Positions 2,646-24,000 of a DNA stretch of 24,000 bases are shown here, one piece after another (positions within the stretch are counted from its first letter, which is position 1; each line of letters opens with the position of its first letter). The DNA lies in the NCBI GenBank assembly GCA_035689345.1, contig DASSLR010000012.1, positions 33,065-57,064 on the forward strand, given 5' to 3'. A program made the translations under genes and the position numbers. The notes under the pieces are model-generated. The model was not told where the DNA came from. It worked only from the letters and a program-made list of their open reading frames with translations, and did no database searches. Source of the DNA: Candidatus Dormiibacterota bacterium. GTDB taxonomy: Bacteria; Chloroflexota; Dormibacteria; Dormibacterales; Dormibacteraceae.

Positions 2646-2662
2646 TGAGCGTCCCGAATCCG

Positions 2663-2680: not shown

Positions 2681-2684
2681 GGAC

Positions 2685-2850: not shown

Positions 2851-2871
2851 AGAGGCGCCACCCGAGCGCGC

Positions 2872-3252: not shown

Positions 3253-3262
3253 CAGTAGCGCG

Positions 3263-3778: not shown

Positions 3779-3785
3779 ACGGCGC

Positions 3786-4010: not shown

Positions 4011-4044
4011 CGCTCTGCACCTCCAGTTTCAACGGCCGCCGCTT

Positions 4045-4530: not shown

Positions 4531-4534
4531 GGGA

Positions 4535-4957: not shown

Positions 4958-5069
4958 GGGTCAAGGGTGTGTCGCGGAGGCACCCCGCCGTAGGGCCGGT
5001 CGGCCTTGCCCGCGACGCCAATGGCCTCTACTGGCCTGGGTCGAGCGCCGCGAGACTCGGATTCGGGCC

Positions 5070-6053: not shown

Positions 6054-6149
6054 GGCTTTGAACGGCGGTCCTCGGCGCGGGGCTCATCGATTCTTCCGCC
6101 GGAGTCCTCACGCGGTAACTGGCGGCCACGATGTGTCGTTATTACTGCT

Positions 6150-7325: not shown

Positions 7326-7337
7326 TCCTGCGCGACG

Positions 7338-7964
7338 TCAGGCGAGGAACTCCCACAGTGATCCGGCCAGGAACACGGGCACGGCCAGTGCGTAGACGTA
7401 CCCAGCGTCCTTGAGCGCCAGGGTCGGAACGCGCAGGCCGAGGATCGAGGGTAACGAGCGGTCGGCCCGGACTCGCCAGGCCGCCAGCCCCACGTACACG
7501 CCGGCGCCCATCGTCAGCACGTAGCCGATGAGCTGCAGCACGACCGTCACGAGGTAGTAGACGGCGCTCGAGGGCGATGCCAGGCGGCTCACGTGGTTTC
7601 GGTCGATCGAGACGACGCCGCCCACCCACCCGCGGTACGCGGCGATCGGAAACGGCCCGACGACAGACAGGCCGGTCACCGACGTAGGGATCGCACCCAG
7701 AACGAGGTTCGATCCGAAATCGAGCAGCGCAGCCTGCAGGCGATCGCCGTGGTTGTACGCGATGGTGATCGGGCTCGCCTGCCCGCCAGCCACCACCGCG
7801 TCGCGCTGCTCGAGCGCGACCGGCCATCCCGCCGAGGCAAGTCCGATTCCCAGGCCGACGAAGAGGAGGTAGGTCGCCGCGGACGCGAGGATCGGCCCGC
7901 GCGCGCGGCGAAGGGCGAGCCGAACGCGACGCAGGAAGCCCATTGTCTCTCGCCAAAGTCGCAC
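7338..7964 (-). CDS. Polytopic integral membrane protein (possibly SpoIIM/DUF95-like)
   Basis: 208 aa with a basic N-terminus (RRVRLALRRARG) and about 5 hydrophobic helices. The family assignment is only a resemblance. An alternative start is ATG 7943. Confidence 0.55.
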   Translation of the reverse strand: MRLWRETMGFLRRVRLALRRARGPILASAATYLLFVGLGIGLASAGWPVALEQRDAVVAGGQASPITIAYNHGDRLQAALLDFGSNLVLGAIPTSVTGLSVVGPFPIAAYRGWVGGVVSIDRNHVSRLASPSSAVYYLVTVVLQLIGYVLTMGAGVYVGLAAWRVRADRSLPSILGLRVPTLALKDAGYVYALAVPVFLAGSLWEFLA

Positions 7965-8073
7965 CCGGTCGATGTCGCCCGTAGTGCCTTCCGGCCCGCG
8001 TCTTCGGGGCCGGCCGCCGGTTGGCCCCCCGCCGCGCTCGCGTCAGAGTGGACACAGGAAGGAGGTTGGCAAA

Positions 8074-8652
8074 ATGGCCGACAGAGTCAGGACCGGCGCC
8101 GCGCCGCGCGCCGACGCTCGGTGGTGGTTGGGAGCCGCAGCGGTCGCGGCCGCGGCGGCCGCCACGGTTTACTGGTTCGATCCCGCGAGTGGCCGGTCAC
8201 GGCGCGCTCGTACCGCGCAACAGGTCGGGCACGTGGCCAGGGCGGCCCGAGCTCGAATGGCGCGCGAGATTCACTACCTGTGCACGACCGCAAGCGGCAA
8301 GGCCTTGCACCACATCGCGGGTGACAAGCCCGTCGCACTCGAGGGTCGCGCCCTGCTCGATCGCGTCGAAAGCGAGCTGTTCACCGATCCGGCCATCCCG
8401 CACGGTGCTCTCAACTTCGACGTCGAGGGCACGACCGTAGTGCTTCGCGGCCAGCTGCCGTCACAGGCCGATATCGATCGGGTCAAGGGCGCGGTGAAGA
8501 AAGTGCGTGGCGTCGCAAAGGTCAGGAGCTTCCTGCACCTTCCGGGCATGCCGGCGCCCAACAAGGTGTCGGCCTTGCTGGCGGGAACCGCCGCCACCCG
8601 GCAGGACGGATGGCCCGAGGAGCCGCCGCCCGACGTCGACTCGGAAGCCTGA
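8074..8652 (+). CDS. BON-domain protein (OsmY-like) with an N-terminal hydrophobic anchor
   Basis: GGAAGGAGG at 8057-8065 precedes ATG 8074. The anchor is WWLGAAAVAAAAAATVYWF. The C-terminal BON-type segment is LLDRVESELFTDPAIPHGALNFDVEGTTVVLRGQLPSQADIDRVKGAVKKVRGVAKV. Confidence 0.75.
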   Translation: MADRVRTGAAPRADARWWLGAAAVAAAAAATVYWFDPASGRSRRARTAQQVGHVARAARARMAREIHYLCTTASGKALHHIAGDKPVALEGRALLDRVESELFTDPAIPHGALNFDVEGTTVVLRGQLPSQADIDRVKGAVKKVRGVAKVRSFLHLPGMPAPNKVSALLAGTAATRQDGWPEEPPPDVDSEA

Positions 8653-8655
8653 GGC

Positions 8656-9189
8656 TTAACCCAGGAAGACGCCGGGGACCGTCCACCCGGCGTTGAAGTG
8701 GCGGCCGCTCAGCTCCTCCACCTTCAGCGCCATCCAGTGCAGCTTCGAACCCGGCGCGTCGGGCTTCACCGCCAGCCGGCGCAGCTCGCGACTGGCCTCG
8801 TCCGTGGCCTCGGTGATGTCCTCCAGGCGCCCGAACGCCATCACGCTCCAGCCTTCGAGCGTGTGCGGGTCGTACTCATCGACCTCGAAGCACGAGATCG
8901 AGCCAGGGCCGTGCTCGAGCTTGGCGCCCGGTGACGTGCGAAAGACGATCGCCGACTCCCCGACCGCGTAGTTGACGGGAAACAGATGCGGGCGGTCGTG
9001 CACGTTGATGACGACACGTCCCAAACGCTGAGTGCGCAGGCGACTCCAGCACTGCTCGGCGGAGAGAGCCAGCACATCGGGCGACGCGTAGACGGTGCGC
9101 GCCCGCCCAGGTGATTCCGATCCGGCTGCAGGTGAATTGCCCATCACGAAGCGAGTGTGGGCGGCATGCTGACCACGGATCACGGCCAT
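8656..9189 (-). CDS. Pyridoxamine 5'-phosphate oxidase-like (split-barrel flavin/F420-binding) family protein
   Basis: LSAEQCWSRLRTQRLGRVVINVHDRPHLFPVNYAV...IVFRTSPGAKL...FEVDEYDPHTLEGWSVMAFG. ATG lies 6 nt after the ATPase stop. Confidence 0.8.
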   Translation of the reverse strand: MAVIRGQHAAHTRFVMGNSPAAGSESPGRARTVYASPDVLALSAEQCWSRLRTQRLGRVVINVHDRPHLFPVNYAVGESAIVFRTSPGAKLEHGPGSISCFEVDEYDPHTLEGWSVMAFGRLEDITEATDEASRELRRLAVKPDAPGSKLHWMALKVEELSGRHFNAGWTVPGVFLG

Positions 9190-9195
9190 TGGGCC

Positions 9196-11493
9196 CTATG
9201 AGAACCGGCGACTGGCCCTGGCCTGGACGAGCGCGTTGGAGCCCATCTCGAGGGCACCGAGCGCCAGGCTCACGATCCCGACCGCCGCCAGCATCACCAG
9301 CGGTCGCGGGAAGTCGAGGTCGAAAAAGGCACGCGCTGGCGGTATCAACAGCACCGTCGCCAGCCCGAGGGCCATGCCGATCACGAGCGCGCGTCGCTGA
9401 TTGGTCAGGGGGCTTGCCAGTCGCGCCAGCACCCAGAGGCCGACCGCCGCCATCACGATCGTGGCCAGCGTCCGCTCCTCGCTCAGCGGAATGTCCGGCT
9501 CGCCGATCGCCAGGGCGTAGGCGGTGAAGGTGGCCGCCGCCGCGACCAACCCGGTCGGCAGCGCGAACGCGAGCACGCGCCGGAGGAATGGCTTGCGCGA
9601 GGGCAGAAAGCTCGGGCCGAGGGCCAGAAAGACCGAAGGAATTCCGATCGTGAAAGCGCTGATCAGGGTGAGCTGGCGTGGCAGGAACGGGAACGGAAAG
9701 ACGGCGACCCCGACCGCGATTGCGAGCAGGAACGCATACACCGTCTTGGTGAAGAACAGGCTCGCGAGCCGCTCGACGTTGCCGATGACTCGCCGGCCCT
9801 CGCTGAGCACCGCGGGCACGGCGTCGAAAGATCCCTCGGTCAGAACGCACGCCGCGACCGCCCGCGCGGCCGCGCTTCCACCACCGAATGCGATCCCGAG
9901 GTCGGCCTCCTTCAGCGCGAGCACGTCGTTGACTCCATCGCCTGCCATCGCGACCGTGTGCCCGGCCGAGCGGAGGGCGCGAATGATCGCGCGCTTCTGC
10001 TCCGGCCTGACCCGGCCGAAGATCGAGGCTTGCTTCGCGACCTCCACCAGCTCGGGCCCGTCATCGGGCAGCCGGCGGCAGTCGACCGCCTCGAGCGAAT
10101 CGAGGCCGACCTGCTTCGCGATCCTGGCCACCGAGTCCGGATGGTCGCCGGAGATGAGCTTGATGGCCAGGCCCTGGTCGACCAGGTGCTTCAAGGTGGC
10201 CGCCGCACCGGGCTTGACGGACTCTTCCAGGACGACGAGCGCGGCCGGATCGAGACCGTCGACTCCGTCCTCGCTCACGCCGGCCGCCTGGGCGATGAGA
10301 AGTGCGCGCCGGTCGGTGGCGAAGGAGCGGTCGGGCACGATGACGTCGGGCGCTCCGATCACCCACCAGCCGCGGTCGTGAAATCTCGCGGCGCTCCATT
10401 TGCGCTCCGAGGAAAAAGGCACAGCTGCCTCGAGCACCCAGCCGGCCGGTGACGGATTCGCCTCTGCGATCGCGCGCATCGCAGGGTTGGCCCGTGGGTC
10501 GATATGCGTGATGGCGCCGAGCGCCTCCTTCCAGGTCGGATCGGCGGTCAGCGCATCGACGCGCGCGACGCTCACCTCGGCAGCCGTGAGAGTTCCGGTC
10601 TTGTCGAAGCAGACCACGTCGGTCCGGGCCAGCATCTCGACGGCCGCCAGCTGCTGGATCAGCACCTTGCGGCGGCCCAGCCTGATCACCGCCAGGGCCA
10701 GCGTCGCGCTCGTGAGGAGCACGAGACCTTCCGGGACCAGCGTGATCACGCCGGCCACGGAGGCGCGGGCGGCGTCGGGCAGCGAGGGGTTGGCGCGCAG
10801 CTGCGAGACCACGAGCAGCAGCGCGGTGGGCGCGATGATCCAGGTCACCAGTCGCAGGATCTGGTTGATGCCGAGCATGAGCTCCGAGCGCACGAGCTGA
10901 AAACGCCGCGCCTCGACGGTGAGCCGTCGCGCGTACGTCGCCTCACCCACCTTCGAGGCTCGATAGCTGCCGCCGCCGGCCGAGACGAAGCTGCCGGCCA
11001 GGAGCATGTCGCCACGCTTCTTGCTGACCGGCGTCGCCTCACCCGTGAGCAGCGCCTCGTTGACCTCGACCGGCGAGTCACTTTCGAGCGGGCCGTCGAC
11101 GACGACCTCGTCCCCTACGGCGATCTCGAGCAAGTCGTCCTGCACGATCTCGTCCAGACCGAGCTCTGTGCGCCGGCCGTCCCGGATGACTGTTGCCCGC
11201 GGCGCCGCAACGAGGGCCAGCCGGTCCAGCGTGACCTTGGCGCGCACCTCCTGCGCGATCCCGATCAGCGCGTTGAGCACAAGGATCAGGCCGAACACGG
11301 CATCCTGAAGCGGCCCGACGATCAGGATCACGACGAGCATAGATCCCAGCAACGCGTTGAACCGGGTCAGCAGATTCGCCTTCAGGATGTCGCCGATGCT
11401 CCGGCTCGTGACGTCGCGCGTGGTGTTGACGAGACCGCGCTCGGCATGCTCGCTCACCTGCTGCCGGGTGAGGCCCCCATTGAGAACGGCCAT
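9196..11493 (-). CDS. P-type cation-translocating ATPase (P2-like, mycobacterial CtpE-like; probable Ca2+/divalent cation)
   Basis: 765 aa with TGE (LLTGEATPV), PEGL in M4 (VPEGLVLLTS), the phosphorylation site CFDKTGTLT, the hinge MAGDGVNDVLALKEADLGIAFG, and multiple TM helices at both ends. Confidence 0.95.
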   Translation of the reverse strand: MAVLNGGLTRQQVSEHAERGLVNTTRDVTSRSIGDILKANLLTRFNALLGSMLVVILIVGPLQDAVFGLILVLNALIGIAQEVRAKVTLDRLALVAAPRATVIRDGRRTELGLDEIVQDDLLEIAVGDEVVVDGPLESDSPVEVNEALLTGEATPVSKKRGDMLLAGSFVSAGGGSYRASKVGEATYARRLTVEARRFQLVRSELMLGINQILRLVTWIIAPTALLLVVSQLRANPSLPDAARASVAGVITLVPEGLVLLTSATLALAVIRLGRRKVLIQQLAAVEMLARTDVVCFDKTGTLTAAEVSVARVDALTADPTWKEALGAITHIDPRANPAMRAIAEANPSPAGWVLEAAVPFSSERKWSAARFHDRGWWVIGAPDVIVPDRSFATDRRALLIAQAAGVSEDGVDGLDPAALVVLEESVKPGAAATLKHLVDQGLAIKLISGDHPDSVARIAKQVGLDSLEAVDCRRLPDDGPELVEVAKQASIFGRVRPEQKRAIIRALRSAGHTVAMAGDGVNDVLALKEADLGIAFGGGSAAARAVAACVLTEGSFDAVPAVLSEGRRVIGNVERLASLFFTKTVYAFLLAIAVGVAVFPFPFLPRQLTLISAFTIGIPSVFLALGPSFLPSRKPFLRRVLAFALPTGLVAAAATFTAYALAIGEPDIPLSEERTLATIVMAAVGLWVLARLASPLTNQRRALVIGMALGLATVLLIPPARAFFDLDFPRPLVMLAAVGIVSLALGALEMGSNALVQARASRRFS

Positions 11494-11505
11494 GTTCAGG
11501 CGAGC

Positions 11506-13209: not shown

Positions 13210-13329
13210 AACCCAATGGTTCGTGCGTGGCCGGCGGTGCGGGAGGGCCGCTCGACACCGTTTTCTCCGGCCGCCCGACCCTTGGACCGCCTGCTGCCTG
13301 GGACCACGCTTACGCCAGAGGTGATCGAA

Positions 13330-13536
13330 ATGACGGCACTTTTGCTGGCGGGCTACGTTCCCGCACCGCTGCCGGCCGCCACCGGAAGCAGCGATCCATG
13401 GGGCATCGCTCTCGTGGTCGGCAGCGTCCTGGCTCTGGCGGTCGCCATCACCGTGGCGCTCGTCTACTTCAACCGGCCCGCCCCGAAGCGGGTGGAGAAG
13501 GCAGCTCCAATCGAGCACTTGCGGAAGGCCGCCTGA
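13330..13536 (+). CDS. Small single-pass membrane protein (68 aa), not listed separately in the ORF track
   Basis: GAGGTG SD at 18-23 (13318-13323) sits 6 nt before ATG 13330. The TM segment is WGIALVVGSVLALAVAITVALVYF, followed by a basic tail. About 84 % GC at third codon positions by hand count. A strong intrinsic terminator starts 23 nt after the stop. Confidence 0.5.
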   Translation: MTALLLAGYVPAPLPAATGSSDPWGIALVVGSVLALAVAITVALVYFNRPAPKRVEKAAPIEHLRKAA

Positions 13537-13558
13537 TACCAGGCAAGCGGATACGAAG

Positions 13559-13593
13559 GGGGAGCGCCACATGCGCTCCCCTCTCGTTTTGTT
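13559..13593 (+). terminator. Rho-independent terminator
   Basis: GGGGAGCGC (13559-13567), loop CACAT, GCGCTCCCC (13573-13581), followed by TCTCGTTTTGTT. Confidence 0.7.
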
Positions 13594-13669
13594 GAGGCCG
13601 CACGGCCCGCGCGGCGTAGGTCCTTTCGCTCTTATCCCTTCGCGCGAGGCCGTCGATCATCCGAGCCAG

Positions 13670-13960
13670 ATGGATCGCAAGAGGCGCGTCCTGGTTGCCT
13701 GTGGAACGGCGATCGCCACTTCCACCCATGTGGCCAACCGGCTGGAGCGTGAATTCGCGGCTCGCGGTCTCGACATCGCCATCACTCAGTGCCGCGTGGC
13801 CGAGGTGCCATCGCACGTGGGAGATGTCGACGTGGTCGTGACGACGGCGCCTATGGCGCCCGTCGATTCACTGCCGATCGTGAGCGGGATCCCGTTCCTC
13901 ACCGGCATCGGCGAAGACGAAGCCTTGAAGCAAATCCTCGAAGCGGTTGAAGGAGGTTAA
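13670..13960 (+). CDS. PTS EIIB component, galactitol family (GatB/SgcB-like)
   Basis: 96 aa. RRVLVACGTAIATSTHVANRLE...ITQCRVAEV...PIVSGIPFLTGIGEDEALKQILEAV is collinear with E. coli GatB as I recall it, with the active-site Cys in VACG. Confidence 0.9.
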   Translation: MDRKRRVLVACGTAIATSTHVANRLEREFAARGLDIAITQCRVAEVPSHVGDVDVVVTTAPMAPVDSLPIVSGIPFLTGIGEDEALKQILEAVEGG

Positions 13961-13969
13961 CGCGAGGAA

Positions 13970-15397
13970 ATGGACTGGGATTCGATAGTGACGTTCGTTC
14001 GGGACCAGCTGGGCAACACCGTCGTCTTGCCCATCGTCATCGCCGCGCTCGGTATCGCGCTCGGTCAGCGATGGCCGAAGGCGATTCGCTCTGGCCTGAC
14101 GGTCGGTGTGGGCTTCGTCGGCCTGGGGCTGGTCATCACGCTTCTGTTGGGTGCGCTGGGCCCCGCCACCGACGCGATCGTTTCGCGGTTTGGGCTGCAC
14201 CTGACCACGATGGACGTAGGCTGGCCGGTGGCGGCCGCAATCGCGTTCGGCACGACGGTCGGTGCGTTGATCATCCCGTTGGCGCTCGGCGTCAACGTGG
14301 CGATGCTGCTGACGCGACTGACCAAGACCCTCAACGTCGACATCTGGAACTTCTGGCACTTCGCCTTCACCGGGTCGCTGGTGTACCTGGTGACCGGGCG
14401 CAACATCTGGGCCGGCTTGATCGCAGCCGCCGTCCACGCCGTCATCTCGCTGAAGGTGGCGGACATCACCGCTCCGGCGATCCAGAAGTTCTTCAACCTG
14501 CCTGGTGTCTCGATTCCGCAGGGCTTCGCCGTCACCACGGTGCCGGTCGTCCTCGCCTTCAACTGGGTGCTCGACCGCATCCCGTTCGTCAAGGACATCA
14601 AGATCGACTCCGCGACCCTGCAGAAGAGGCTGGGCGTCCTCGGCGAGCCCTTGATCCTGGGCGTGATCCTCGGCGTCTTCTTCGGCCTCGTCGCCGGATA
14701 CGACTTCCCGAAGACCGCCGTACTGTCCGTGCAGCTTGGTGCGGTGATGCTGCTCGTGCCGCGCATCATCGGCATCTTCATGGAAGGCCTTGTGCCCGTC
14801 TCGGAGGCGGCGCGCGTCTTCTTCCAGAAGCACTTCCACGGCCGTGAGTACTACGTCGGTCTGGACTCCGCCATCCTGATCGGGCACCCGATCACCATCG
14901 CGGCGGCGATCCTGCTGATCCCGACTGTGCTGCTCCTGGCCGCCATCCTTCCCGGCAACACGACCCTGCCGTTCGCGGACCTCGCGGCGCTCGCGTTCTT
15001 CGTGGCGATGGCGACACCGCTCACCAAGGGCAACCTGTTCCGCACGTACGTGATCGGCGCTTTCACCATGGTCATGGTCCTGTACCTGACCACGTTCTTC
15101 GGACCGAACCTGACGCAGACGGCGTCGGATATCGGTTTCAAGCTGCCCTCGACCGTCGCGGCCGGTGCCACCATCAGCGCGCTCTCGGGCGGCAACCTCT
15201 ACGCGTTCATCAACTACATCTCGGCGCAGTGGCTCGGCATCTTCGGCCCGATCGCGCTGCTGCTGATCGTCGGCGCAGGCGCGTACCTGCTGCGCAACTA
15301 CACGTACAGCCCCAAGGAGGCTCCGACCGCTCCGCCGGCGGCTGAGGCTCCGAAGCCGACTGTCCTGCCACCGACCGCGAGGCCGGTGACCACCTGA
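13970..15397 (+). CDS. PTS EIIC component, galactitol family (GatC/SgcC-like), with a Pro/Ala-rich C-terminal tail
   Basis: 475 aa. VLPIVIAALGIALG, GVGFVGLGLVI, NVAMLLTRLTKTLNVDIWNFWHFAFTG, LVPRIIGIFMEGLVPVSEAAR, LPFADLAALAFFVAMA and GNLFRT parallel E. coli GatC. Confidence 0.95.
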   Translation: MDWDSIVTFVRDQLGNTVVLPIVIAALGIALGQRWPKAIRSGLTVGVGFVGLGLVITLLLGALGPATDAIVSRFGLHLTTMDVGWPVAAAIAFGTTVGALIIPLALGVNVAMLLTRLTKTLNVDIWNFWHFAFTGSLVYLVTGRNIWAGLIAAAVHAVISLKVADITAPAIQKFFNLPGVSIPQGFAVTTVPVVLAFNWVLDRIPFVKDIKIDSATLQKRLGVLGEPLILGVILGVFFGLVAGYDFPKTAVLSVQLGAVMLLVPRIIGIFMEGLVPVSEAARVFFQKHFHGREYYVGLDSAILIGHPITIAAAILLIPTVLLLAAILPGNTTLPFADLAALAFFVAMATPLTKGNLFRTYVIGAFTMVMVLYLTTFFGPNLTQTASDIGFKLPSTVAAGATISALSGGNLYAFINYISAQWLGIFGPIALLLIVGAGAYLLRNYTYSPKEAPTAPPAAEAPKPTVLPPTARPVTT

Positions 15398-15412
15398 AAG
15401 CTGGGAGGTATT

Positions 15413-15449
15413 CGGGAGCGGACCGCGTCCGCTCCCGGACCTCGGGAGC
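15413..15449 (+). promoter_or_regulatory. Intercistronic RNA element: a stable hairpin with an alternative pairing that would sequester the SD
   Basis: CGGGAGCGGAC (15413-15423) pairs perfectly with GTCCGCTCCCG (15427-15437). GCTCCCG (15431-15437) is also complementary to CGGGAGC (15443-15449), which contains the SD GGGAG of the M42 gene. Confidence 0.5.
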
Positions 15450-15456
15450 AATGGAA

Positions 15457-16596
15457 ATGGCAGCGACGACCACGGCGAAGTCCACAAGAAGCATCGTGCC
15501 TATGCTGGAGCGTCTTTCGGCCATCGCCGCGCCCTCGGGCAACGAGGACCGCGTGATCGCGGCGGTCGTGGCACATGCCGAGGCCTGCGGGTTCTCGCCG
15601 GTCGTCGACAATATCGGCAACGTCGTTGTCCCGGTCGCGGAGGGAGCTGCCGGCTCGCCGCTGGTCTTCGCGCACCTCGACGAGCTCGGTCTCACCGTCA
15701 GGTCGATCGACGGCGACGGATTCGTCGGCGTGGAGCGTTTGGGCGGAGTGCCCGAGAGAGTGCTTCCCGGGCTCAAGATGCTCATCCACACCCGAGCCGC
15801 GGACATACCCGCGATCGTCGGCCTCAAGGCCCACCACCTCACGCCCGCCGGAGAGAAGTACGTGGTCCGGCCGGCCGAGGAGCTCTACCTCGACGCCGGA
15901 TTCCCCAGCAGGGCGGCGGCCCACGAGGCGGGCATCCGGGTAGGCGACCCGATCACCTACTCGCCGTCCTTCACGCATCTGGCCGGCGGACTGGTCAGCG
16001 GTAAGTCGTTCGACGACCGGCTGGCGGTCGCCGCGCTGCTGATGCTGCTCGACTCTTTCGCCGAATCACCCCCCGACCGCGGCGTGCTGGTCGCATTCAC
16101 CGTGCAGGAGGAGTTCAACGTCCGGGGTTCGCTCGCCATCGCGCAGCGGTGGCGGCCAGGCATCGCCGTGCAGGTCGATGTCGCGCCGGCGTGCGACACG
16201 CCCGACCTGGCCGGTCGCGATCCGGTGAGGCTCGGCGGCGGGCCGGTGCTGACGCGCCTGAGTTTCCACGGGCGAGGAACTCTCGGCGGCCTGGTGCCCC
16301 ATCCTGCGCTGCTGCGGGCGCTCGAGGAAGCTGCTGCCGCGGCGGAGGTGCCGGTCCAGTACCAGTCGATCGTCGGCCTCATCACCGACGCGGCTTTTCT
16401 TCCGATGGCGACCGGTGACGGCATCGCCGCCGCCGAGGTTGGGATCCCGTGCCGCTACACGCACAGCCCGATCGAGACTGCCGATCCGCGAGACGCGGAG
16501 CTCATGGTCCGGCTGCTCGAACGATTCATCAGAGCCCACGCGAACATCGACATGCGCCGCGGCCGGCCGCTGGCGAAGCAAGGAGGAATGTCGTGA
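15457..16596 (+). CDS. M42-family metallopeptidase/cellulase-like protein (FrvX/SgcX-like)
   Basis: MLERLSAIAAPSGNEDRV, FAHLDELGL, GKSFDDRLAVAAL, FTVQEEFNVRGS, IPCRYTHSP. GGGAG at 15444-15448 is 8 nt from ATG 15457; the track's ATG at 15451 is only 2 nt from that SD. Confidence 0.9.
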   Translation: MAATTTAKSTRSIVPMLERLSAIAAPSGNEDRVIAAVVAHAEACGFSPVVDNIGNVVVPVAEGAAGSPLVFAHLDELGLTVRSIDGDGFVGVERLGGVPERVLPGLKMLIHTRAADIPAIVGLKAHHLTPAGEKYVVRPAEELYLDAGFPSRAAAHEAGIRVGDPITYSPSFTHLAGGLVSGKSFDDRLAVAALLMLLDSFAESPPDRGVLVAFTVQEEFNVRGSLAIAQRWRPGIAVQVDVAPACDTPDLAGRDPVRLGGGPVLTRLSFHGRGTLGGLVPHPALLRALEEAAAAAEVPVQYQSIVGLITDAAFLPMATGDGIAAAEVGIPCRYTHSPIETADPRDAELMVRLLERFIRAHANIDMRRGRPLAKQGGMS

Positions 16597-17435
16597 ACGC
16601 GATCGAGGAGATCTTTGGCAAGTCGAAGGCCATCATCGCGATGGCGCACTTCCCACCTTTGCCCGGACAACCGCTGTACGACGCGTCAGGCGGCCTGGCG
16701 AAGATTCGCGAGGTCGTCAGCGACGACGTCGACCGGCTGGCGGCGGCCGGGGCGGACGGAATCCTGTTCTGCAACGAAGGCGACCGCCCCTACCGGGCGC
16801 ACGCCGGCCACGAAACAGTGGCCGTGATGTCGTCGGTCATCCAGGACGCGGCGCGTGGACTGCGCATTCCATTCGGTGCCGACGTCCTGTGGGACCCGCA
16901 GGCGGCGATCGCGATCGCGTTCGCGACCGGCGCACGATTCGTGCGCGAGGTGTTCACCGGGGTCTACTCGAGCGACTTCGGGATCTGGAACACTGACCCA
17001 GCCGGCGCGCTGCGCTTCCGGCGTGAGCTCGGCGCTTCCGACTTGCGCTGCTTCTACAACATCACGGCGGAGTTCGCGTCGCCGCTGGCCGCTCGACCCA
17101 TCGAGCTGACAGCTCGCTCCGCGGTGTTCTCGTCGCTGGCCGACGCCATCTGCGTCTCGGGCAGCCTGACCGGCACCGCTCCCGACATCGACGTCGTGGC
17201 GGCGGTCAAGCGCGCGGTTCCCGACACCGCGGTCATCGTGAACACCGGCGTGCGCGCGGACACGGTCGGCAAATTTCTCAACGCCGCCGACGCCGTCATC
17301 GTCGGCACCGCGTTGAAGCGTGACGGCGTGACGTGGAATCCGGTGGATGCCGACCGCGCCAAGAGCTTCATCGCCGCCGCGGCGGGCACAGGAGTCTGGA
17401 GTCCCGGTCCCGCGCGCACGCCCGCCATGGTGTAG
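16593..17435 (+). CDS. BtpA-family TIM-barrel protein (SgcQ-like)
   Basis: AGGAGG at 16581-16586 sits 6 nt before GTG 16593, which overlaps the M42 stop (GTGA). AIIAMAHFPPLPGQPLYD, GADGILFCNEGDRPY, FGADVLWDP, ICVSGSLTGTAPD and VIVGTALKRDG match the BtpA/SgcQ pattern. Confidence 0.85.
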   Translation: MNAIEEIFGKSKAIIAMAHFPPLPGQPLYDASGGLAKIREVVSDDVDRLAAAGADGILFCNEGDRPYRAHAGHETVAVMSSVIQDAARGLRIPFGADVLWDPQAAIAIAFATGARFVREVFTGVYSSDFGIWNTDPAGALRFRRELGASDLRCFYNITAEFASPLAARPIELTARSAVFSSLADAICVSGSLTGTAPDIDVVAAVKRAVPDTAVIVNTGVRADTVGKFLNAADAVIVGTALKRDGVTWNPVDADRAKSFIAAAAGTGVWSPGPARTPAMV

Positions 17436-17437
17436 CG

Positions 17438-18091
17438 ATGCGCGTGGCGGTCTCGCTGGCGTCGGCCGATCCGCTGCGGATCGCGGAAGCCGCCGAGCGC
17501 GCCGCCACCGCGGGCGCAAGCGCTCTGCACGTCGATTTCGGCGACGGCCGGTTCGTGCCGTGGCTTGGCGGCGGGGTTGAGCTCGTGGCGGCGCTGGTCC
17601 GGCTGGCGGCCATTCCGGTCGACGTCCATCTGATGGTGGAGGAGCCTGAGCCCTACTTCGCTCCTCTGGCGGCGGCCGGCGCGACCTCCGTCGTCGCGCA
17701 CATCGAACGCGCGCCGTATCCATGGCGACTCCGCGCGCTCGCTCATCGCTCCGGCATGCAGTTCGGGTTGGCGTTGAACCCGGCGACGCCGATAAGCGAC
17801 CTGGAGCCGGTGATCAGCTGCGCCGACTACTTAGTACTGCTCACCACGGAGCCCGACGGAGCGGGCGAGCTCATGCTGCCGAACACGCTGGAGCGCGTCC
17901 AGGCCGCGCGAGCTCTCATCGGCCCCGATCGCGCGCTCGAGATCGACGGCGGCGTGACCGGTGAATCCCTCACCTGGCCCATGAGGGCCGCGGTAGACCG
18001 TCTCGTCGTCGGTCGGGCGGTGCTCGACTCAGCGGAGCCGGCAATCCTGATCGCACATCTCGCGTCCGGCAACGGGGTCGGGGTGCGATGA
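17438..18091 (+). CDS. Divergent ribulose-phosphate 3-epimerase family protein (SgcE-like)
   Basis: ATG lies 2 nt after the BtpA stop. SLASADPL, LHVDFGDGRFVP, VDVHLMV, LNPATP, LLTTEPDGAGE, EIDGGV, VVGRAV. The Rpe metal ligands (H, D, H, D) appear conserved, but the phosphate-loop region is altered. Confidence 0.8.
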   Translation: MRVAVSLASADPLRIAEAAERAATAGASALHVDFGDGRFVPWLGGGVELVAALVRLAAIPVDVHLMVEEPEPYFAPLAAAGATSVVAHIERAPYPWRLRALAHRSGMQFGLALNPATPISDLEPVISCADYLVLLTTEPDGAGELMLPNTLERVQAARALIGPDRALEIDGGVTGESLTWPMRAAVDRLVVGRAVLDSAEPAILIAHLASGNGVGVR

Positions 18092-18558
18092 GCGTCGCGG
18101 CGCCGTCGAGCCTGTACTGGTCGTCCGGGTTGGTGCGCCGGTTTTCGTCAGCGGACGGTCCAGAGGACGCGATAAGGCTCGTCGGCAACTTGCTCATCAA
18201 AGCGGGCGCAGCGACAGCCGCGCACGTCGAAGCTGCGGTGCGTCGCGAGGCGGAGTACCCGACCGGGCTCCCAGCGAGCGTGCCCTTCGCGCTCGCGCAC
18301 ACGGACGCGCCCGGGGCGCTGCGGCTGGCGGCTGCGGTCGGCATCTTCGAGCAACCGGTCGTGTTCCGCCGCATGGACCGGCCCTCGGAGATGCTGCCGG
18401 TGAGGCTGGTGGCGATGCTCACCGTGCCCAGGCGCCACATGCAGGCGGAGCTCCTCAGCAACCTGATCAAAGGGCTGGCCTCTCCGGGTGTGGCCGAGCA
18501 GCTGCTCGAAGCGCCGCCACCGGATGCCCTGCGGCTGCTGCGCGGGGTGACGGGATGA
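18088..18558 (+). CDS. PTS EIIA component, type 2 (mannitol/fructose/Gat family; SgcA/GatA-like)
   Basis: ATGA overlap with the epimerase stop. 156 aa with the phosphorylatable His in SVPFALAHTD and EAEYPTGLP upstream, typical of EIIA-2. Confidence 0.85.
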   Translation: MSVAAPSSLYWSSGLVRRFSSADGPEDAIRLVGNLLIKAGAATAAHVEAAVRREAEYPTGLPASVPFALAHTDAPGALRLAAAVGIFEQPVVFRRMDRPSEMLPVRLVAMLTVPRRHMQAELLSNLIKGLASPGVAEQLLEAPPPDALRLLRGVTG

Positions 18559-20186
18559 GCCCGGCGCGGGCAACCGTCCTGCGGGGGATAGCGGCCTCGC
18601 GCGGCGAGGCAGCGGGCCCTGTGTTCGTGGTGCGCGAGGGTCCGGCAGAGGGCGGTCGGGCGGCGGCCGATTTCGACTCCGCCGCCCAGGCGGTCGCGAT
18701 GCGCCTCGACGCGATCGCAGACCAGGCGACGTCCAGGCCCGAGGGGGCCGCGATCCTGCGGGCACAGGCGGCGATGGCGCGGGACCCGGTGCTGGCCGCG
18801 TCGGTTCGCGAGCGGCAGGGTCGAGGCGAAAACCTGGCCGCCGCCATCAAGTCCGCGACCGATGCATACGCGGACAGGCTCCTCGAGCTCGACGACGCGT
18901 ACCTTCGCCAGCGCGCGGCCGACGTGCGCGAGATCGGGCGCCTGCTCATCGCCGAAGCCGAAGGGGGAATCGGGTCGCGGCTCGGCGGCTTGCGCAGCCC
19001 GGCGGTGGTGGTCGCTCGCGACCTTTCACCGGCCGACACGTTGAGCGTCGCCGGCGACCTGCTCCTGGCCCTGGTCACCGAGGAGGGCGGGCTCACGTCA
19101 CACACCGCCATCGTGGCGCGCGAGCTCGGCATCCCGGCCGTGGTGGGACTGCAGGGCGCGGTGGCGGCCGCGGCGGGACACGCGGGTGTCCGGGTGGACG
19201 GAGACGCTGGCGAAGTCACGTTCATGGACAGCGCCGAGCCGCGGCAGGCCAGGTCGATGACGCGGCTGATCGACGCGGCGTCGGCCCCCGTGCCGGTCCT
19301 GGCGAACGCCGGCTCGGTCGAGGCCGCCACTTCCGCCGCCGCTCGCGGTGCGGCGGGCATCGGCCTGTTCAGGACCGAGTTCATGTTCATGGCCCAGCAC
19401 GGACCGATGTCCGAGGACGATCAGGCCGCGACCTACGCCCGGGTCTGCGATGCGCTGCCGGGCCGGGTGGTCGTGGTCCGCACGCTGGACGCAGGCGCTG
19501 ACAAGCCGCTACCGTTCCTGCCGCCGGCGACGGAAGCCAATCCTCAGCTGGGGCGTCGAGGCGTCCGCCTGTGGCTGGGCAACGAGGAGCTGTGCAGGCC
19601 GCAGGTGCGCGCGCTGCTCCGCTGCGCGGCGACGCATCCGCGGATGCAGGTGATGCTGCCGATGGTCGGCGCGCGTCCGGAGATGGTCGCGGCGCGGGCT
19701 CTCTTTGCGGCCGAGGCCGCAAGCCTCGGTGTGGGCGTTCCGGACATCGGGATGATGGTGGAAGTGCCCGCGGTGGCCGCGGCGCTAGAGGCATTCCAGG
19801 GCGTGACGGATTTCGTCAGTCTCGGCACCAACGATCTCACCCAGTACGCGGTGGCCGCGGACCGAGGAATGGATTGGCCGGACGATCTTGGAGTGTTCAA
19901 TCCCGGCGTGCTGCGCCTGATCGCGACCGTGATCGAGAGCGCCCGGCGCATGGCGATCGGGGCAGGCGCCTGCGGCGAGATGGCAGGCAGACCCGAAGGG
20001 GGCATCTTCCTGGTCGGGGTCGGAGCTACATCGCTGAGCATGACCGCCGACTCCATCCCGGCCGTGGTCGAGGCCACGAGCCGGTTGGGGGGCGAGCGCT
20101 GCGCCACCGCCGCTCGCGAGGCTTTGCAGGCGGACTCAGCGCGCGGCGCTCTTGCCGTCCTGAGGAGCGCCCTCGCCGAGGCCTGA
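18555..20186 (+). CDS. ptsI: Phosphoenolpyruvate-protein phosphotransferase (PTS Enzyme I)
   Basis: ATGA overlap with the EIIA stop. GGLTSHTAIVARELGIPAVVG carries the active His. GIGLFRTEFMF, VVRTLDAGADKP and SLGTNDLTQY are also present. Confidence 0.95.
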   Translation: MSPARATVLRGIAASRGEAAGPVFVVREGPAEGGRAAADFDSAAQAVAMRLDAIADQATSRPEGAAILRAQAAMARDPVLAASVRERQGRGENLAAAIKSATDAYADRLLELDDAYLRQRAADVREIGRLLIAEAEGGIGSRLGGLRSPAVVVARDLSPADTLSVAGDLLLALVTEEGGLTSHTAIVARELGIPAVVGLQGAVAAAAGHAGVRVDGDAGEVTFMDSAEPRQARSMTRLIDAASAPVPVLANAGSVEAATSAAARGAAGIGLFRTEFMFMAQHGPMSEDDQAATYARVCDALPGRVVVVRTLDAGADKPLPFLPPATEANPQLGRRGVRLWLGNEELCRPQVRALLRCAATHPRMQVMLPMVGARPEMVAARALFAAEAASLGVGVPDIGMMVEVPAVAAALEAFQGVTDFVSLGTNDLTQYAVAADRGMDWPDDLGVFNPGVLRLIATVIESARRMAIGAGACGEMAGRPEGGIFLVGVGATSLSMTADSIPAVVEATSRLGGERCATAAREALQADSARGALAVLRSALAEA

Positions 20187-20441
20187 GTCGATCGCGGCAG
20201 CGAGCTGTTCGAGGTCGTCGGCTTCGTCCTGCCCGTCGACCGTGACTTCGATCCGCTGGCCCTCGCTTGCTCCGAGCGTGAGCACCTCGAGGATGCTCTT
20301 GCCGTTCGCCCTGGTACCTGGCCGATCCAGGTTCTGGACGCGCACGTCAGAGCTCAGCCCCGCCGCCGTGCGCACGAACACGGTGGCGGGGCGCGCGTGG
20401 AGCCCTGATGCGTTCCGCAGCCGGAAGACCTGTGTTCTCAC
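20136..20441 (-). CDS. ptsH: Phosphocarrier protein HPr, with a C-terminal extension
   Basis: GTG start. NASGLHARPA is the His15 motif and ANGKSILEVLTLGA is the Ser46-type motif. At 101 aa it is longer than typical HPr, and its tail overlaps the ptsI 3' end by 51 nt. Confidence 0.9.
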   Translation of the reverse strand: MRTQVFRLRNASGLHARPATVFVRTAAGLSSDVRVQNLDRPGTRANGKSILEVLTLGASEGQRIEVTVDGQDEADDLEQLAAAIDSGLGEGAPQDGKSAAR

Positions 20442-20450
20442 CGATGACCG

Positions 20451-21260
20451 CTACTTGAGCAGCCGCCCGCCGTCGACGATGACCAGCGAACCGGTCATGT
20501 AGTCGGACGCCGGCGACGCGAGGAATACGGCCACCTTGGCGATGTCGTCGGGGGTGCCGAAACGGCCGAGGGGCACCTGGCTGATGAACTGCTTCGTCAG
20601 CTGCTGCAGCTGCTCGGCGGTCATGCCCTGCATCGGCTTCGAGGCGCCTTCGGTGGTGATGCCGCCGGGCGCGATCGCGTTGACGGTCACGTTGTGCGGC
20701 GCCATCTCCAGGGCGAAGTTCTTGGTGAACATCAGCACGCCGCCCTTGGAAGCGTCGTACGCGGCGAGGCCCGGCATTGACGGATGGACCGAGTCGATCG
20801 ACGCAACGTTGACGATCTTGCCGCCGCGACCCTGCTTAACCATCTGCAGCCCAGCCGCCTTCGACATGAAGACGAGCCCGCGCAGGTTGACATCGATGAC
20901 GCGGTCGAAGAACTCGGGAGTCATCTCCAGCACCGGGCTGGTCGGGTAGATGCCCGCGTTGTTGACCAGGATGTCGATCGACCCGAGCTCGTCGACGACC
21001 CGCTGCACCGCCGCTGCGGCGGCGTCCGCGTCGGCGATGTCGAGCACCATTCCCCGCGCCTCGGCATCCAGCTTCGCCGCGGCCGGCTGCACGATGGGGC
21101 TGAGGTCGGCGAGCATCACCTTGGCGCCGGCTTCGACGAAGCGCTGCGCGATCCCATAGCCGATGCCCATGGCCGCTCCCGTGATGAGGGCGTTGCGGCC
21201 TTTCAATCCAAAGGGGCCCCAGCCTGTCGTTGGAGCCGCTTCTGCAATCGCGGTGACCAT
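20451..21260 (-). CDS. Short-chain dehydrogenase/reductase (classical SDR); candidate sugar/polyol-phosphate dehydrogenase
   Basis: AAGGAGG sits 8 nt before the ATG. ALITGAAMGIGYGIA is the TGxxxGxG motif; NNAG is present; S...YDASK is the catalytic triad/tetrad; PGGITT follows. Confidence 0.9.
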   Translation of the reverse strand: MVTAIAEAAPTTGWGPFGLKGRNALITGAAMGIGYGIAQRFVEAGAKVMLADLSPIVQPAAAKLDAEARGMVLDIADADAAAAAVQRVVDELGSIDILVNNAGIYPTSPVLEMTPEFFDRVIDVNLRGLVFMSKAAGLQMVKQGRGGKIVNVASIDSVHPSMPGLAAYDASKGGVLMFTKNFALEMAPHNVTVNAIAPGGITTEGASKPMQGMTAEQLQQLTKQFISQVPLGRFGTPDDIAKVAVFLASPASDYMTGSLVIVDGGRLLK

Positions 21261-21398
21261 CTTCAGTACCTCCTTGACGGAAAACTCACTCGTCTCATCC
21301 TGCGGAGGGAAGCGGTCCAGACCAATCGTCCGTCGGCCCCTACCGGCACGGTCGAAAGGCTCTAGATCGCGCCACCGGCGCGCCCGATATTTGAAAGC

Positions 21399-21962
21399 GT
21401 GAAGAGCGGGCTTCGGGTCGCCATGGCGCTGGCGGTGGTGCTCGTCGTCGCGGCCTGCGGGACGTCGAGCCCAGTCGCGACCGTGCCGAGCCCATCACCG
21501 GCGCCGTCGCAGACGACGATTCAGAGTCCCTCGCCGGCTCTGGTCTCGATCGTCGTCGCGAACGCGGAGATCAGAGCCCGCGTTTCGGGCGCCAACCCAG
21601 TGCTGCTGCCGGCCGCGGTGCCCGCCGGCTGGTCGGCGCGGCTCACTGAGCTCGGGTCCTGGTTCTTCACGGTGATCTACAGCAGCCCGGATGGAAAGCA
21701 AACGATCGAGTTCGCGATCGTCGTGCCCAACCCGCCACCGCCTGGGCCGAACGGCCTGCAGGTGCAGCCAGGCTTCCACGGCGACCGGCACTCGCTGTAT
21801 CAGGTGGATGACAAGGCCCAGGCAGGAAGCCATCGATGGCTGATCTGGAACGAGCCCGGGACCTGGTCCGAGCCAAACGGGTTGCCGGGCGTGCCGTACT
21901 TCCTCAGCACGACGGGCCTCACGGACGCGGAGTTCTGGGCCGTCGCGAACTCCGTGAAGTAG
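21399..21962 (+). CDS. Lipoprotein, function unknown
   Basis: Signal/lipobox KSGLRVAMALAVVLVVAACGT, then a Pro/Ser linker. The start is GTG 21399 or ATG 21420. The stop TAG abuts the ackA stop. Confidence 0.65.
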   Translation: MKSGLRVAMALAVVLVVAACGTSSPVATVPSPSPAPSQTTIQSPSPALVSIVVANAEIRARVSGANPVLLPAAVPAGWSARLTELGSWFFTVIYSSPDGKQTIEFAIVVPNPPPPGPNGLQVQPGFHGDRHSLYQVDDKAQAGSHRWLIWNEPGTWSEPNGLPGVPYFLSTTGLTDAEFWAVANSVK

Positions 21963-23060
21963 TCAGGCGGTCGAGAGCACCCGCCGGACCTCGCGCGCGA
22001 CCTCAACGTCTTCCCGGGCGCGGACGACCAGCGTCCGGGCCTCGGCCTCCGTGGTGCTGATGTCGTGATCGCCAGTCGCATCCGCGTTCAAGTCAGGACT
22101 GATGTCGAGGCCAAGGAAACGCAGGCCGGACACGGCCCCGGCGCGGACGGCGGGCGCGTGCTCGCCGACTCCCCCTGTGAAGACGAGCGCGTCCAGGCCG
22201 TTCATGGCCGCGGCCATCGCGGCGATGCCGGCCCGGAGGCGGTGAAGGTAGACGTCGAGCGCGAGGCGTGAGCGCTTCACGCCTGCGCCCACGCCGCGCA
22301 GCACCTCGCGCATGTCTGCCACGCCGGCCAGCGCCAGAAGGCCCGACTTCGAGTCGAGCGTCTCGGTCAGCTGGGGCTCCGTCATTCCATGGCGTCGCTG
22401 CAGCCAGAGCACGATTCCCGGATCCACGCTTCCCGACCGCGTGGCCATGACCAGACCTTCCATCGGGGTGAAGCCCATGGTCGTGTCCACCGAGCGGCCT
22501 CCCAGCACGGCCGCGAGCGAAGCGCCTGCACCAAGGTGGCAGGTGACGGTGCGCAGCAGCTCCGCCGGCCGATCGAGCATCTCCGCCGCACGCCTCGACG
22601 CGTACGCGTGCGAGAACCCGTGGAACCCGAAGCGCCGCACGCCCAGCCGCGACTGCCACTCCAGCGGCACCGCGTAGGTGGAGGCCTCCGCGGGCATCGT
22701 CGAGTGAAAGGCGGTGTCGAAGCACGCCACCGCCGGCACTCGTGGAAGCAGTGTCCGCGTCGCCGCGATGCCGGCAAGCGAGGCGGGGAGGTGAAGGGGG
22801 GCGAGGTCGGTGATCGAGCCCAGGTAGTCGATGAGCTCCGGGTCGACCCGCACGGATTGCGGATATCGCGGCCCACCGTGAACCACACGGTGACCCACCG
22901 CATCGACGCCGGACATCACGCGCACCGCACCCTGCAGCTCGGACTCGTCGAACTCGCCGCCTTTCGCGTCGAAGTCGCGCTCGAAGAGGGTCGAGTCGTC
23001 TTCCTCGACCAGGCTCACCTTGAGGGAGCTCGAGCCGGCGTTGACTACGAGTACTTTCAG
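21963..23060 (-). CDS. ackA: Acetate kinase
   Basis: [66 protein letters not shown] and VFTGGVGEH are all present. No ATG, GTG or TTG is available for the N-terminus. The 5' boundary is set at CTG 23060, which overlaps the xfp stop. Confidence 0.85.
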
Positions 23061-24000
23061 TGCGGCCAGGTCCAGTTGAGAACGTCCGGCGCGTCCTGGC
23101 CGTGATCGCGCGTGTACTGGCGATGGCGCAGGCGCTCGTCCTCCATCCGCTGCCGCACATGCGCGGCATTCGAGCGAAGGCCCGGCACCCGGTCGATCAC
23201 GTCCATTACCAGGTGGAACCGGTCGAGGTCGTTGAGCATGACCATGTCGAAGGGAGTGGTCGTCGTCCCTTCCTCTTTGTATCCGCGGACATGGATGTTG
23301 TCGTGATTGGTGCGCCGGTACGTGAGGCGGTGGATGAGCCACGGGTAACCGTGGTAGGCGAAGATCACGGGGCGGTTGGTGGTGAAGAGGGCGTCGAACT
23401 CCGCGTCCGAAAGGCCGTGAGGATGCTCGCTGGCCGGCTGCAGGCGCATTAGGTCGACGACGTTGACCACGCGAACTTTGAGCGTGCCGAGGTGCTTGCG
23501 GATCAGGTCTGCCGCGGCGAGCGTCTCCAGGGTCGGGATGTCGCCCGCGCAAGCGAGCACGACGTCCGGGTCGCCACCTTCGTCGGTCGACGCCCAGTCC
23601 CAGACGCCGAGCCCGCGCGTGCAGTGCGCGATCGCCTCGTCCATGGACAGGTAGTTCAGAGCCGGCTGCTTGCCGGCCACGATCACGTTGACGTAGTTGC
23701 GGCTGCGCAGGCAGTGGTCGGTGATCGAGAGAAGCGTGTTGGCGTCGGGTGCCAGGTAAACGCGGATCACCTCCGCCTTCTTGTTGACTACGTGGTCGAT
23801 GAAGCCGGGATCCTGGTGAGTGAACCCGTTGTGGTCCTGGCGCCAGACGTGCGATGACAACAGGTAGTTGAGCGAGGCGATGGGTCGCCGCCACGGCAGC
23901 TGGCGCGTGACCTTCAACCACTTCGCGTGCTGGTTGAACATCGAGTCGACGATGTGCACGAAGGCCTCATAGCAGTTGAAGAGGCCGTGGCGACCCGTGA
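23057..24000 (-). CDS. xfp: Xylulose-5-phosphate/fructose-6-phosphate phosphoketolase, C-terminal ~313 aa; the 5' end lies outside the window
   Basis: The frame is open to the window edge ([29 protein letters not shown]...). [33 protein letters not shown] and the C-terminus DVLNWTWPH are present. The in-frame portion is 23057-23998. Confidence 0.95.

Follow-up and report, generated by a model that had tools for sequence, protein, structure and literature searches.

The closest described relative of the gene cluster examined here is the sgcXBCQAE-sgcR cluster of Escherichia coli K-12, situated on the KpLE2 island and encoding a sugar phosphotransferase system (PTS) whose substrate and functions were still to be established in July 2026 (PMC13343008), as the earlier note on this DNA had also stated. 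Two further E. coli loci invite comparison: gatYZABCD, which shares Gat-family Enzyme II components (EIIA, EIIB and EIIC), and ulaABCDEF/ulaG, where a PTS is likewise followed by a hydrolase, a phosphate-binding barrel and a 3-epimerase feeding the pentose phosphate pathway. Here we analyse a 24-kb stretch of DNA (hereafter the window) from the metagenome-assembled genome (MAG) of a Candidatus Dormibacteraeota bacterium, an uncultured soil organism; the BtpA, Enzyme I (EI) and acetate kinase (AckA) proteins of the window are identical to the NCBI entries HET7465320.1, HET7465323.1 and HET7465327.1, encoded on a 123-kb contig. We conclude that its PTS locus is probably the counterpart in Dormibacterota of the orphan sgc system of E. 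coli, attached to the general PTS gene pair of this lineage.

The earlier note described seven packed genes on the + strand between 13670 and 20186, and both their arrangement and their families are borne out by the listing of open reading frames (ORFs) and by Pfam and NCBIfam scans, which recovered all of the genes named there; G+C at third codon positions (GC3) of 0.73-0.90 across the genes of the locus, within a window of 65-73% G+C, further backs these calls. The operon opens with a GatB/SgcB-like EIIB (13670-13960; PF02302, 1e-9; GatB model, 3e-18) and an EIIC of the galactitol family (13970-15397), followed by an SgcX-like metallohydrolase of the M42 family (15451-16596; PF05343, 216.5 bits), a BtpA/SgcQ barrel protein with a GTG start (16593-17435; TIGR00259, 237.6 bits against a cut-off of 153.4), an Rpe-family epimerase of the SgcE type (17438-18091; PF00834, 148 bits), a GatA-like type 2 EIIA (18088-18558; PF00359, 61 bits) and EI (ptsI, 18555-20186), with its N-terminal, mobile His and phosphoenolpyruvate (PEP)-binding domains (PF05524, PF00391, PF02896). 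Direct reading of the junctions confirms the start/stop overlaps and tiny gaps reported previously: GTGA at 16593 joins the M42 stop to the BtpA start, ATGA overlaps at 18088 and 18555 join the EIIA gene at either end, and gaps of 9 nt and 2 nt separate EIIB from EIIC and BtpA from the Rpe-like gene. The ATG start of EIIB at 13670 is common to the window and to a related locus, L082. HPr (ptsH) lies opposite, on the - strand at 20441-20136 (PF00381, 87 bits; TIGR01003, 77.7 bits against a cut-off of 47.9).

The designation of this operon as an sgc-type module holds in BLASTP comparisons, with identities of 47% to SgcC (358 bits), 42% to SgcQ, 36% each to SgcX and SgcB, and 30% to SgcE. The same six structural families are thus present as in E. 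coli, with the difference that the EIIA matches GatA (28%, 5e-8) and gave no BLASTP match to SgcA. Gene order also differs, being B-C-X-Q-E-A-I in the window and X-B-C-Q-A-E-R in E. coli sgc; moreover, unlike the latter, the window lacks DeoR/SgcR, carries ptsI inside the operon and ptsH convergent to it, and has a short-chain dehydrogenase/reductase (SDR) attached to ptsH.

Assignment of the transporter to the Gat family is likewise secure. The EIIC protein matches the EIIC-GAT family over its full length (PF03611, 273.7 bits against a cut-off of 24.2) and covers positions 3-400 of the 407 in TIGR00827 with 467.8 bits, under the cut-off of 542.2 for galactitol-specific members. It is nearer to SgcC and to GatC (41%, 244 bits) than to UlaA, which gave no BLASTP match at E < 0.1, and so does not cluster with the ascorbate transporters, an outcome that would have spoken against the assignment made in the earlier note. 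EIIB is 34% identical to GatB. The translations contain a complete set of phosphorelay residues, comprising the EI His (in GGLTSHTAIVAR) and Cys (in GACGEM), HPr His15 (in GLHARPA), the EIIA His (in FALAHTD) and the EIIB active-site Cys (in RRVLVACGT). Phosphoryl groups would accordingly be expected to pass from PEP through EI, HPr, EIIA and EIIB to a polyol or ketose crossing the membrane through the Gat-family EIIC. A polyol-type pathway is plausible by comparison with gatYZABCD, yet the window lacks both the GatD Zn-dehydrogenase and the GatYZ aldolase of that system, possessing M42, BtpA and Rpe-like proteins instead.

These three enzymes would act on the incoming sugar phosphate. The M42 protein retains every metal and catalytic motif of the solved TET aminopeptidases, its H-x-D-E, F-D-D-R, Q-E-E, D-V and R-Y-x-H-s-P motifs aligning with MJ0555 (9qr6) and 4wwv, and it scores under all NCBIfam equivalog cut-offs (best 128.8 against 412 bits). 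BtpA does not reach the cyanobacterial BtpA equivalog (150.6 against 400 bits) and has no relative by sequence in the PDB, where a profile search returned only the generic C-terminal phosphate-binding motif common to TrpA, GGGPS and Rpe. Its AlphaFold (AF2) model is a (beta/alpha)8 barrel (pLDDT 91), for which Foldseek against the PDB lists only distant TIM-barrel neighbours of a generic kind (PcrB/GGGPS, HisF, ThiE, RPE, KDPG aldolase and Kce), at TM scores of 0.5-0.6 and 11-20% identity; hhalign of the BtpA profile against the Rpe-like protein of the window detected no homology. At the ends of the predicted strands, acidic residues predominate among the invariant positions, with one His and no conserved strand-borne Lys, a pattern that would suit metal- or enediolate-type chemistry better than a Schiff-base aldolase. 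The epimerase keeps the metal and catalytic residues of Rpe (H-x-D-x-x-D, DVHLM and DGG motifs), but reaches only 143 bits against the rpe equivalog cut-off of 212.6, and shares with SgcE both a T-x-E-P-D-G motif in place of the canonical N-P-G-F-G-G-Q and the lack of the Met of the canonical H-x-D-x-M-D. Consequently, we regard it as an SgcE subtype rather than as a housekeeping Rpe. Our literature search returned nothing relevant on BtpA/SgcQ function, on PTS-linked M42 proteins or on PTS in Dormibacterota.

Under the sgc-type reading, the sugar phosphate would be processed by the translationally coupled M42-BtpA pair, with BtpA serving as a phosphate-binding barrel whose substrate would be the phosphorylated sugar and M42 as a dinuclear-metal hydrolase-type enzyme of the pathway, after which the SgcE-type epimerase would invert C3 of the resulting ketose phosphate to yield an intermediate of the pentose phosphate pathway. 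An alternative follows the logic of the Ula system, such that a lactone, lactam, ester or N-acyl sugar would be imported, opened or deacylated by M42, cleaved or decarboxylated by BtpA, and finished by the epimerase. This scheme draws on the succession of hydrolase, phosphate-binding barrel and epimerase behind a related PTS, on the intact metal and catalytic residues of M42, and on the induction of E. coli sgc on nitrogen-containing substrates (PMC13343008). However, beyond the EIIC being unlike UlaA and the epimerase having an Rpe rather than a UlaE fold, homology between the BtpA profile and UlaD is undetectable by hhalign (probability 0.6%), and the candidate identity of BtpA as a KGPDC-like decarboxylase by homology was rejected on that result. 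Furthermore, the Zn-dependent alcohol dehydrogenases (Zn-ADH), Dak and FGGY kinases found in those versions of the locus that use ATP-binding cassette (ABC) transporters, together with the absence of M42 from the commonest BtpA context, favour plain polyol or ketose chemistry. We therefore consider the Ula-like scheme unlikely.

The neighbourhoods of BtpA genes were surveyed with a BtpA alignment as the query against a single genome of each species; this yielded 80 loci, or 82 once L082 and L083 were added. Annotation was by tblastn, the queries being the window proteins together with proteins of representative loci that had been typed against Pfam and NCBIfam. Conservation of the BtpA, M42 and epimerase genes beside EIIBC, which the earlier note had made a test of its reading, is apparent from relatives in three phyla, in which EIIBC, M42, BtpA, Rpe and EIIA co-occur. 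In L082 (BtpA 74% and EI 63% identical to those of the window) the seven genes stand in the same order, followed by a convergent, overlapping ptsH and then a PfkB-family kinase gene, and in L095 (EI 55%) the seven genes and an overlapping ptsH are followed by a Pyridox_ox_2 gene. Across the 82 loci, the most frequent companions of BtpA are an XylB-like FGGY kinase (56 loci; 357 bits against a cut-off of 380), a DeoR regulator (49) and a polyol-dehydrogenase-like SDR (34), with M42 present in 22, a protein resembling inositol monophosphatase (IMPase) in 17, Zn-ADH in nine, Dak1/Dak2 kinase in seven, an Rpe-like protein in seven and a Gat-type EII in six.

Three layouts can be distinguished. The first (A) combines a Gat-type PTS with M42, BtpA and an Rpe-like protein, with or without HPr and EI, and is carried by the window, L082, L095, a member of the Limnocylindrales (L012), Anaerolineae (L065, L074, L076) and E. 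coli. The second (B) comprises DeoR, M42, BtpA, a CUT2 ABC transporter, Dak1/Dak2 and Zn-ADH, often with a second FGGY kinase; its carriers are L083 and actinomycetes such as Spongiactinospora. Genes for CUT2 binding proteins stand next to M42-BtpA in, for instance, Spongiactinospora rosea (L005, 10860-11897) and L083 (4031-5119). The third and commonest (C) consists of DeoR, BtpA, an XylB-like kinase, an SDR, a CUT1 ABC transporter and an IMPase, lacks M42 and occurs especially in Chloroflexota; examples are L022 (8979-18356) and L023 (9112-17202), to which about 30 similar loci can be added, sometimes with an MtaA/URO-D-like protein. Layout C appears to represent an undescribed carbohydrate operon, mainly of Chloroflexota. 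Elsewhere, L073 and L077 (~10001 and ~15080), one from Dormibacteraeota and one from Acidiferrales, each hold two BtpA paralogues 5 kb apart.

This recurrent association of BtpA with phosphorylating systems and polyol-type dehydrogenases suggests that BtpA acts downstream of sugar phosphorylation, and supports the polyol or keto-sugar substrate proposed in the earlier note, since kinases and polyol-type dehydrogenases are its neighbours elsewhere too; these patterns name no particular substrate. A 4-nt overlap joins the M42 and BtpA genes in all gene-called loci that hold both (the window, L082, L083 and L095), while the Rpe-like gene is found mostly with PTS versions, the exceptions being L007 and L061. 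In a neighbour-joining tree of BtpA, the window and L082 fall inside the clade of layout B, with L012 nested there separately, and a second M42-associated clade unites the Anaerolineae PTS loci with E. coli SgcQ. The nesting of PTS-type BtpA sequences within an ABC- and Dak-type clade indicates that the uptake system has been exchanged more than once. It is possible, and we put this forward tentatively, that M42-BtpA constitutes a coupled two-enzyme core, belonging to a polyol- or ketose-phosphate pathway not yet described, and that this core has repeatedly been plugged either into a Gat-type PTS with SgcE or into a CUT2 ABC transporter with Dak/FGGY kinases and Zn-ADH, and that the EIIB-EIIC...EIIA-EI/HPr scaffold of Dormibacterota in turn accepts different cassettes of enzymes, namely M42-BtpA-Rpe in the case of the window and E1alpha-E1beta-E2 in that of L087.

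Genes for EI and HPr beside those of a sugar-specific EII and of catabolic enzymes are familiar from the fructose PTS clusters of Corynebacterium and haloarchaea. The window differs from these in that ptsI and ptsH converge and overlap at their 3' ends, and in that the pair is found within its clade beside several EII families. EI scores 327.5 bits against TIGR01417, for which the curated cut-off is 341.7. It is a member of a divergent, clade-specific EI group that numbers ~80-90 protein clusters (47-63% identity), including several with the name Dormibacteraeota, and beyond which identity falls abruptly to ~40%; a metagenome scan with EI as the single query yielded only irrelevant matches at 27% identity. 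The 3' overlap of ptsI and ptsH measures 51 nt in the window (20136-20186), and the same convergent arrangement recurs in L082 (9036-9071, 36 nt), L087 (9739-9759, 21 nt), L088 (4801-4836, 36 nt) and L095 (11600-11635, 36 nt). Such a layout contrasts with the usual co-directional ptsHI operon, and could permit antisense or transcriptional interference.

The partners of this pair vary. In L087 (2681-9960) the EIIB-EIIC...EIIA-EI/HPr scaffold is as in the window, with a Gat-type PTS beside the pair, and the enzyme cassette is different, E1alpha, E1beta and E2 of a 2-oxoacid or acetoin dehydrogenase replacing M42-BtpA-Rpe; E1alpha/beta genes also occur near the M42-BtpA-ABC loci L010, L013, L059 and L083. 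In L088 the pair adjoins a mannose-type PTS with SIS and amidohydrolase genes, whereas in L096 a member of the EI clade stands beside HPr, EIIA-Man, Dak1/Dak2 and genes resembling those of FGGY kinase and glycerol-3-phosphate dehydrogenase, an assemblage of the Dha type. A further member, in L089, stands alone. Given sgc-type, Gat plus E1/E2, mannose-type and Dha-type partners, embedding of EI and HPr in a sugar-specific locus is typical of the clade and not special to the sgc-type system: the embedding remarked upon in the earlier note is real, but it is ordinary for this clade rather than unusual, as L087, L088 and L096 illustrate. Judged from these neighbourhoods, EI is probably a general enzyme serving several EII families rather than a sugar-specific one. 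The convergent ptsI/ptsH pair is thus the general PTS anchor of the lineage, against which varied EII modules abut.

A more ambitious interpretation, advanced in the earlier note, treats the whole of 13670-24000 as one co-evolved island, in which uptake by the PTS and oxidation by the SDR would lead, by way of a step involving BtpA/M42, to epimerisation yielding xylulose-5-P and thence to phosphoketolase and acetate kinase. A precedent of sorts is the ribitol locus of Lactobacillus casei, which holds a mannose-type PTS, a pentitol-phosphate dehydrogenase, an Rpe and a phosphoketolase. The likeness consists in the proposed flow from pentitol through xylulose-5-P to acetyl-P; in the window, however, the PTS is of the Gat type, and the genes for phosphoketolase (xfp) and acetate kinase (ackA) form a separate unit that lies behind an intervening gene and is not conserved beside the PTS.

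The link of the SDR to the module is weak. The gene (21260-20451, - strand) encodes a classical SDR (adh_short_C2, 215.5 bits) for which the top matches in NCBIfam are either to generic families or to ones resembling polyol dehydrogenases (glucose 1-dehydrogenase subfamily, GolD/DthD, L-iditol 2-dehydrogenase), and it lies only 9 nt upstream of ptsH, with which it would be co-transcribed. That part of the proposed route is plausible, yet the link to ptsH exists only here, its position after ptsH being held by PfkB in L082 and by Pyridox_ox_2 in L095. A role for the SDR as a pathway dehydrogenase is consequently possible and specific to the window genome, in which it may add an oxidoreduction of the polyol phosphate or ketose. 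The window has a PfkB-family sugar kinase gene of its own (5070-6053, + strand, PF00294; true start ~5070), 7.6 kb upstream, which we regard as a candidate accessory gene. Its product is 73% identical to the ptsH-adjacent PfkB of L082, making PfkB a better-conserved neighbour than the SDR.

The sequence of an SDR-HPr unit followed by an xfp-ackA unit is present as described, but the account omitted a lipoprotein-like gene on the opposite strand (21399-21962, +; signal sequence with lipobox, GC3 0.87), which lies outside the module and separates SDR from ackA, in agreement with the NCBI protein numbering, where one protein stands between SDR and AckA. Beyond it, on the - strand, lie ackA (~23060-21963; PF00871, 381 bits) and the C-terminal 313 residues of xfp (24000-23057; XFP_C, 330.5 bits; XFP, 177.5 bits), the latter gene being cut by the window end. 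The ackA frame offers no ATG, GTG or TTG that would keep its N-terminus, and CTG at 23060 overlaps the xfp stop (CTGA); this codon is the probable start, giving a canonical N-terminus and 365 aa as in homologues. By starting at GTG 23018, the NCBI call (351 aa) loses part of the NAGSSS motif.

For the single-island model one may cite physical proximity in the window, the co-transcription of SDR with ptsH, the occurrence of SDRs in 34 of the 82 BtpA loci, and the established biochemistry by which an Rpe-type product could feed Xfp. Against it, xfp-ackA is missing from every relative examined: neither gene was found within 10 kb of BtpA in any of the 80 BtpA-anchored loci, nor in any of the seven loci retrieved via BtpA or EI homologues (L082, L083, L087, L088, L089, L095 and L096). 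In the reverse direction, AckA homologues 75-80% identical to that of the window are always paired with xfp (three loci) and never lie near a PTS or SDR (0 of 3), their neighbours being unrelated: USP (universal stress protein), cytochrome b, HSP20 and WS/DGAT genes at one locus, and Nramp and MgtE at two. Unrelated neighbours and absence from related PTS loci indicate that xfp-ackA is an independent unit, and its proximity to the PTS operon in the window is best read as coincidence, although it could consume xylulose-5-P from this pathway as from any source. Taken together with the opposite-strand lipoprotein gene that splits the units and the replacement of the SDR in the two closest relatives, these observations render the single-island model improbable, and the wiring of the PTS module to phosphoketolase and acetate kinase is not upheld.

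With regard to regulation, DeoR is present at the sgc-type loci L012, L065 and L076 and in E. coli, but is absent from all three Dormibacterota copies, L082 and L095 having neither DeoR nor any other regulator gene near the operon. For the window, the claim that it holds no DeoR/SgcR-type, PRD-type or other regulator gene stands, as Pfam and NCBIfam scans of all its ORFs returned no regulator family. Control of the Dormibacterota operon is not exerted via the DeoR/SgcR repressor of other phyla. Four ORFs lack any Pfam or NCBIfam match (2872-3252, 3916-4554, 6150-7325 and 7338-7964), all with coding-like GC3 except 3916-4554 (GC3 0.69), and a novel regulator may be among them.

Upstream of EIIB, a gap of 460 nt (13210-13669) extends to a divergent NlpC/P60 lipoprotein gene (probable start GTG 13209), and contains a terminator-like hairpin with a T-run at 13558-13582, as well as a doubtful ORF of 68 codons for a membrane protein (13331-13536) with atypical codon-position G+C. 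A role for the hairpin as a leader attenuator was considered and rejected, there being no PRD antiterminator gene and no conservation in L082 or L095. An Rfam scan of the window gave no match and a sigma-70 promoter scan no sites; when the window, L082 and L095 were aligned over the stretch preceding EIIB, neither a common operator nor a conserved motif emerged.

The spacer between EIIC and M42, given as about 59 nt in the earlier note, measures 53 nt (15398-15450), 59 nt being its length in L082. It contains, on the + strand at 15412-15438, a GC-rich stem-loop of the form GGGAGCGGAC-CGC-GTCCGCTCCC, and the folding energy of this spacer hairpin is -34.6 kcal/mol, compared with -19.8 +/- 3.2 for shuffles. 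The identical 10-bp stem (GGGAGCGGAC/GTCCGCTCCC) recurs with another loop in the L082 spacer (4274-4332), the flanking proteins of the two loci being only ~74% identical, and L087 carries a different hairpin at the equivalent position. We infer that the hairpin would serve as an intra-operon mRNA stabiliser or as a partial terminator setting the ratio of transporter to enzymes.

A third alternative takes M42 to be an ordinary aminopeptidase, and the module to serve a glyco-amino-acid or peptide-linked nutrient, or stress or dormancy as part of a stress-type neighbourhood. The first 11,500 nt of the window (1-11500) do hold stress-type genes, encoding two P-type ATPases, two divergent USPs, a DinB/MST protein, PfkB, Pyridox_ox_2 and a protein with a BON domain. 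Of these, the USP, DinB/MST, PfkB, Pyridox_ox_2 and P-type ATPase types recur beside ptsI/ptsH in L082, L088 and L095. The two matches to a DosR-box-like pattern in the interval that separates the divergent USP genes (2008-2021 and 2094-2107) were discounted, being no more than chance would give. In addition to these recurrent neighbours, the alternative can appeal to the fact that the solved M42 relatives are all aminopeptidases, and to the response of E. coli sgc to starvation and to nitrogen-rich poor carbon sources (PMC13343008). However, translational coupling ties M42 to BtpA, its other companions are sugar transporters, kinases and polyol dehydrogenases, no operator is shared, the DosR-like pattern is at chance level and the upstream regions are unconserved, such that we find the aminopeptidase or stress explanation very doubtful.

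Several considerations nevertheless weigh against our identification of the locus as a Dormibacterota sgc system. To our knowledge, no substrate or enzyme activity is established for any homologue of SgcQ or SgcX. BtpA itself lacks an informative neighbour in structure or sequence, and its predicted placement after phosphorylation derives from gene neighbourhood only. The sample of closest relatives is small, amounting to two sgc-type Dormibacterota contigs, one of which (L082) reaches only ~2 kb past ptsH, and three xfp-ackA contigs; the BtpA tree carries no support values. The genes read are those of the 24-kb window, and further EI/HPr genes, regulators or a housekeeping rpe may be present elsewhere in the MAG. 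Finally, deletion of sgcC or sgcX in E. coli leaves growth unimpaired on 190 carbon sources (PMC13343008).

With the failure of the self-contained fermentative route, the locus is a useful new example of the known, orphan sgc kind rather than a new kind of pathway, and its value is mainly comparative, as it helps to define the constant companions of SgcQ and SgcX. This matters given that sgc is among the last PTSs of E. coli without a known substrate, and that the reactions of SgcQ and SgcX are unassigned. The gene set emerges as old and broadly distributed, with representatives in Dormibacterota, Chloroflexota and Proteobacteria, and an sgc-type EII may serve as the principal or sole EII partner for the EI/HPr pair of a lineage. 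The practical value of the census lies in the finding that BtpA almost always stands beside a sugar-phosphorylating system and a polyol-type dehydrogenase. Cultured carriers include Spongiactinospora, Agromyces, Jiangella, Pseudonocardia acaciae and E. coli. Moreover, cultured actinomycetes carry M42-BtpA together with an ABC transporter, the binding protein of which can be screened for ligands; if M42-BtpA is indeed the core of the pathway, these non-PTS versions in cultured organisms would offer a direct route to the substrate of sgc.

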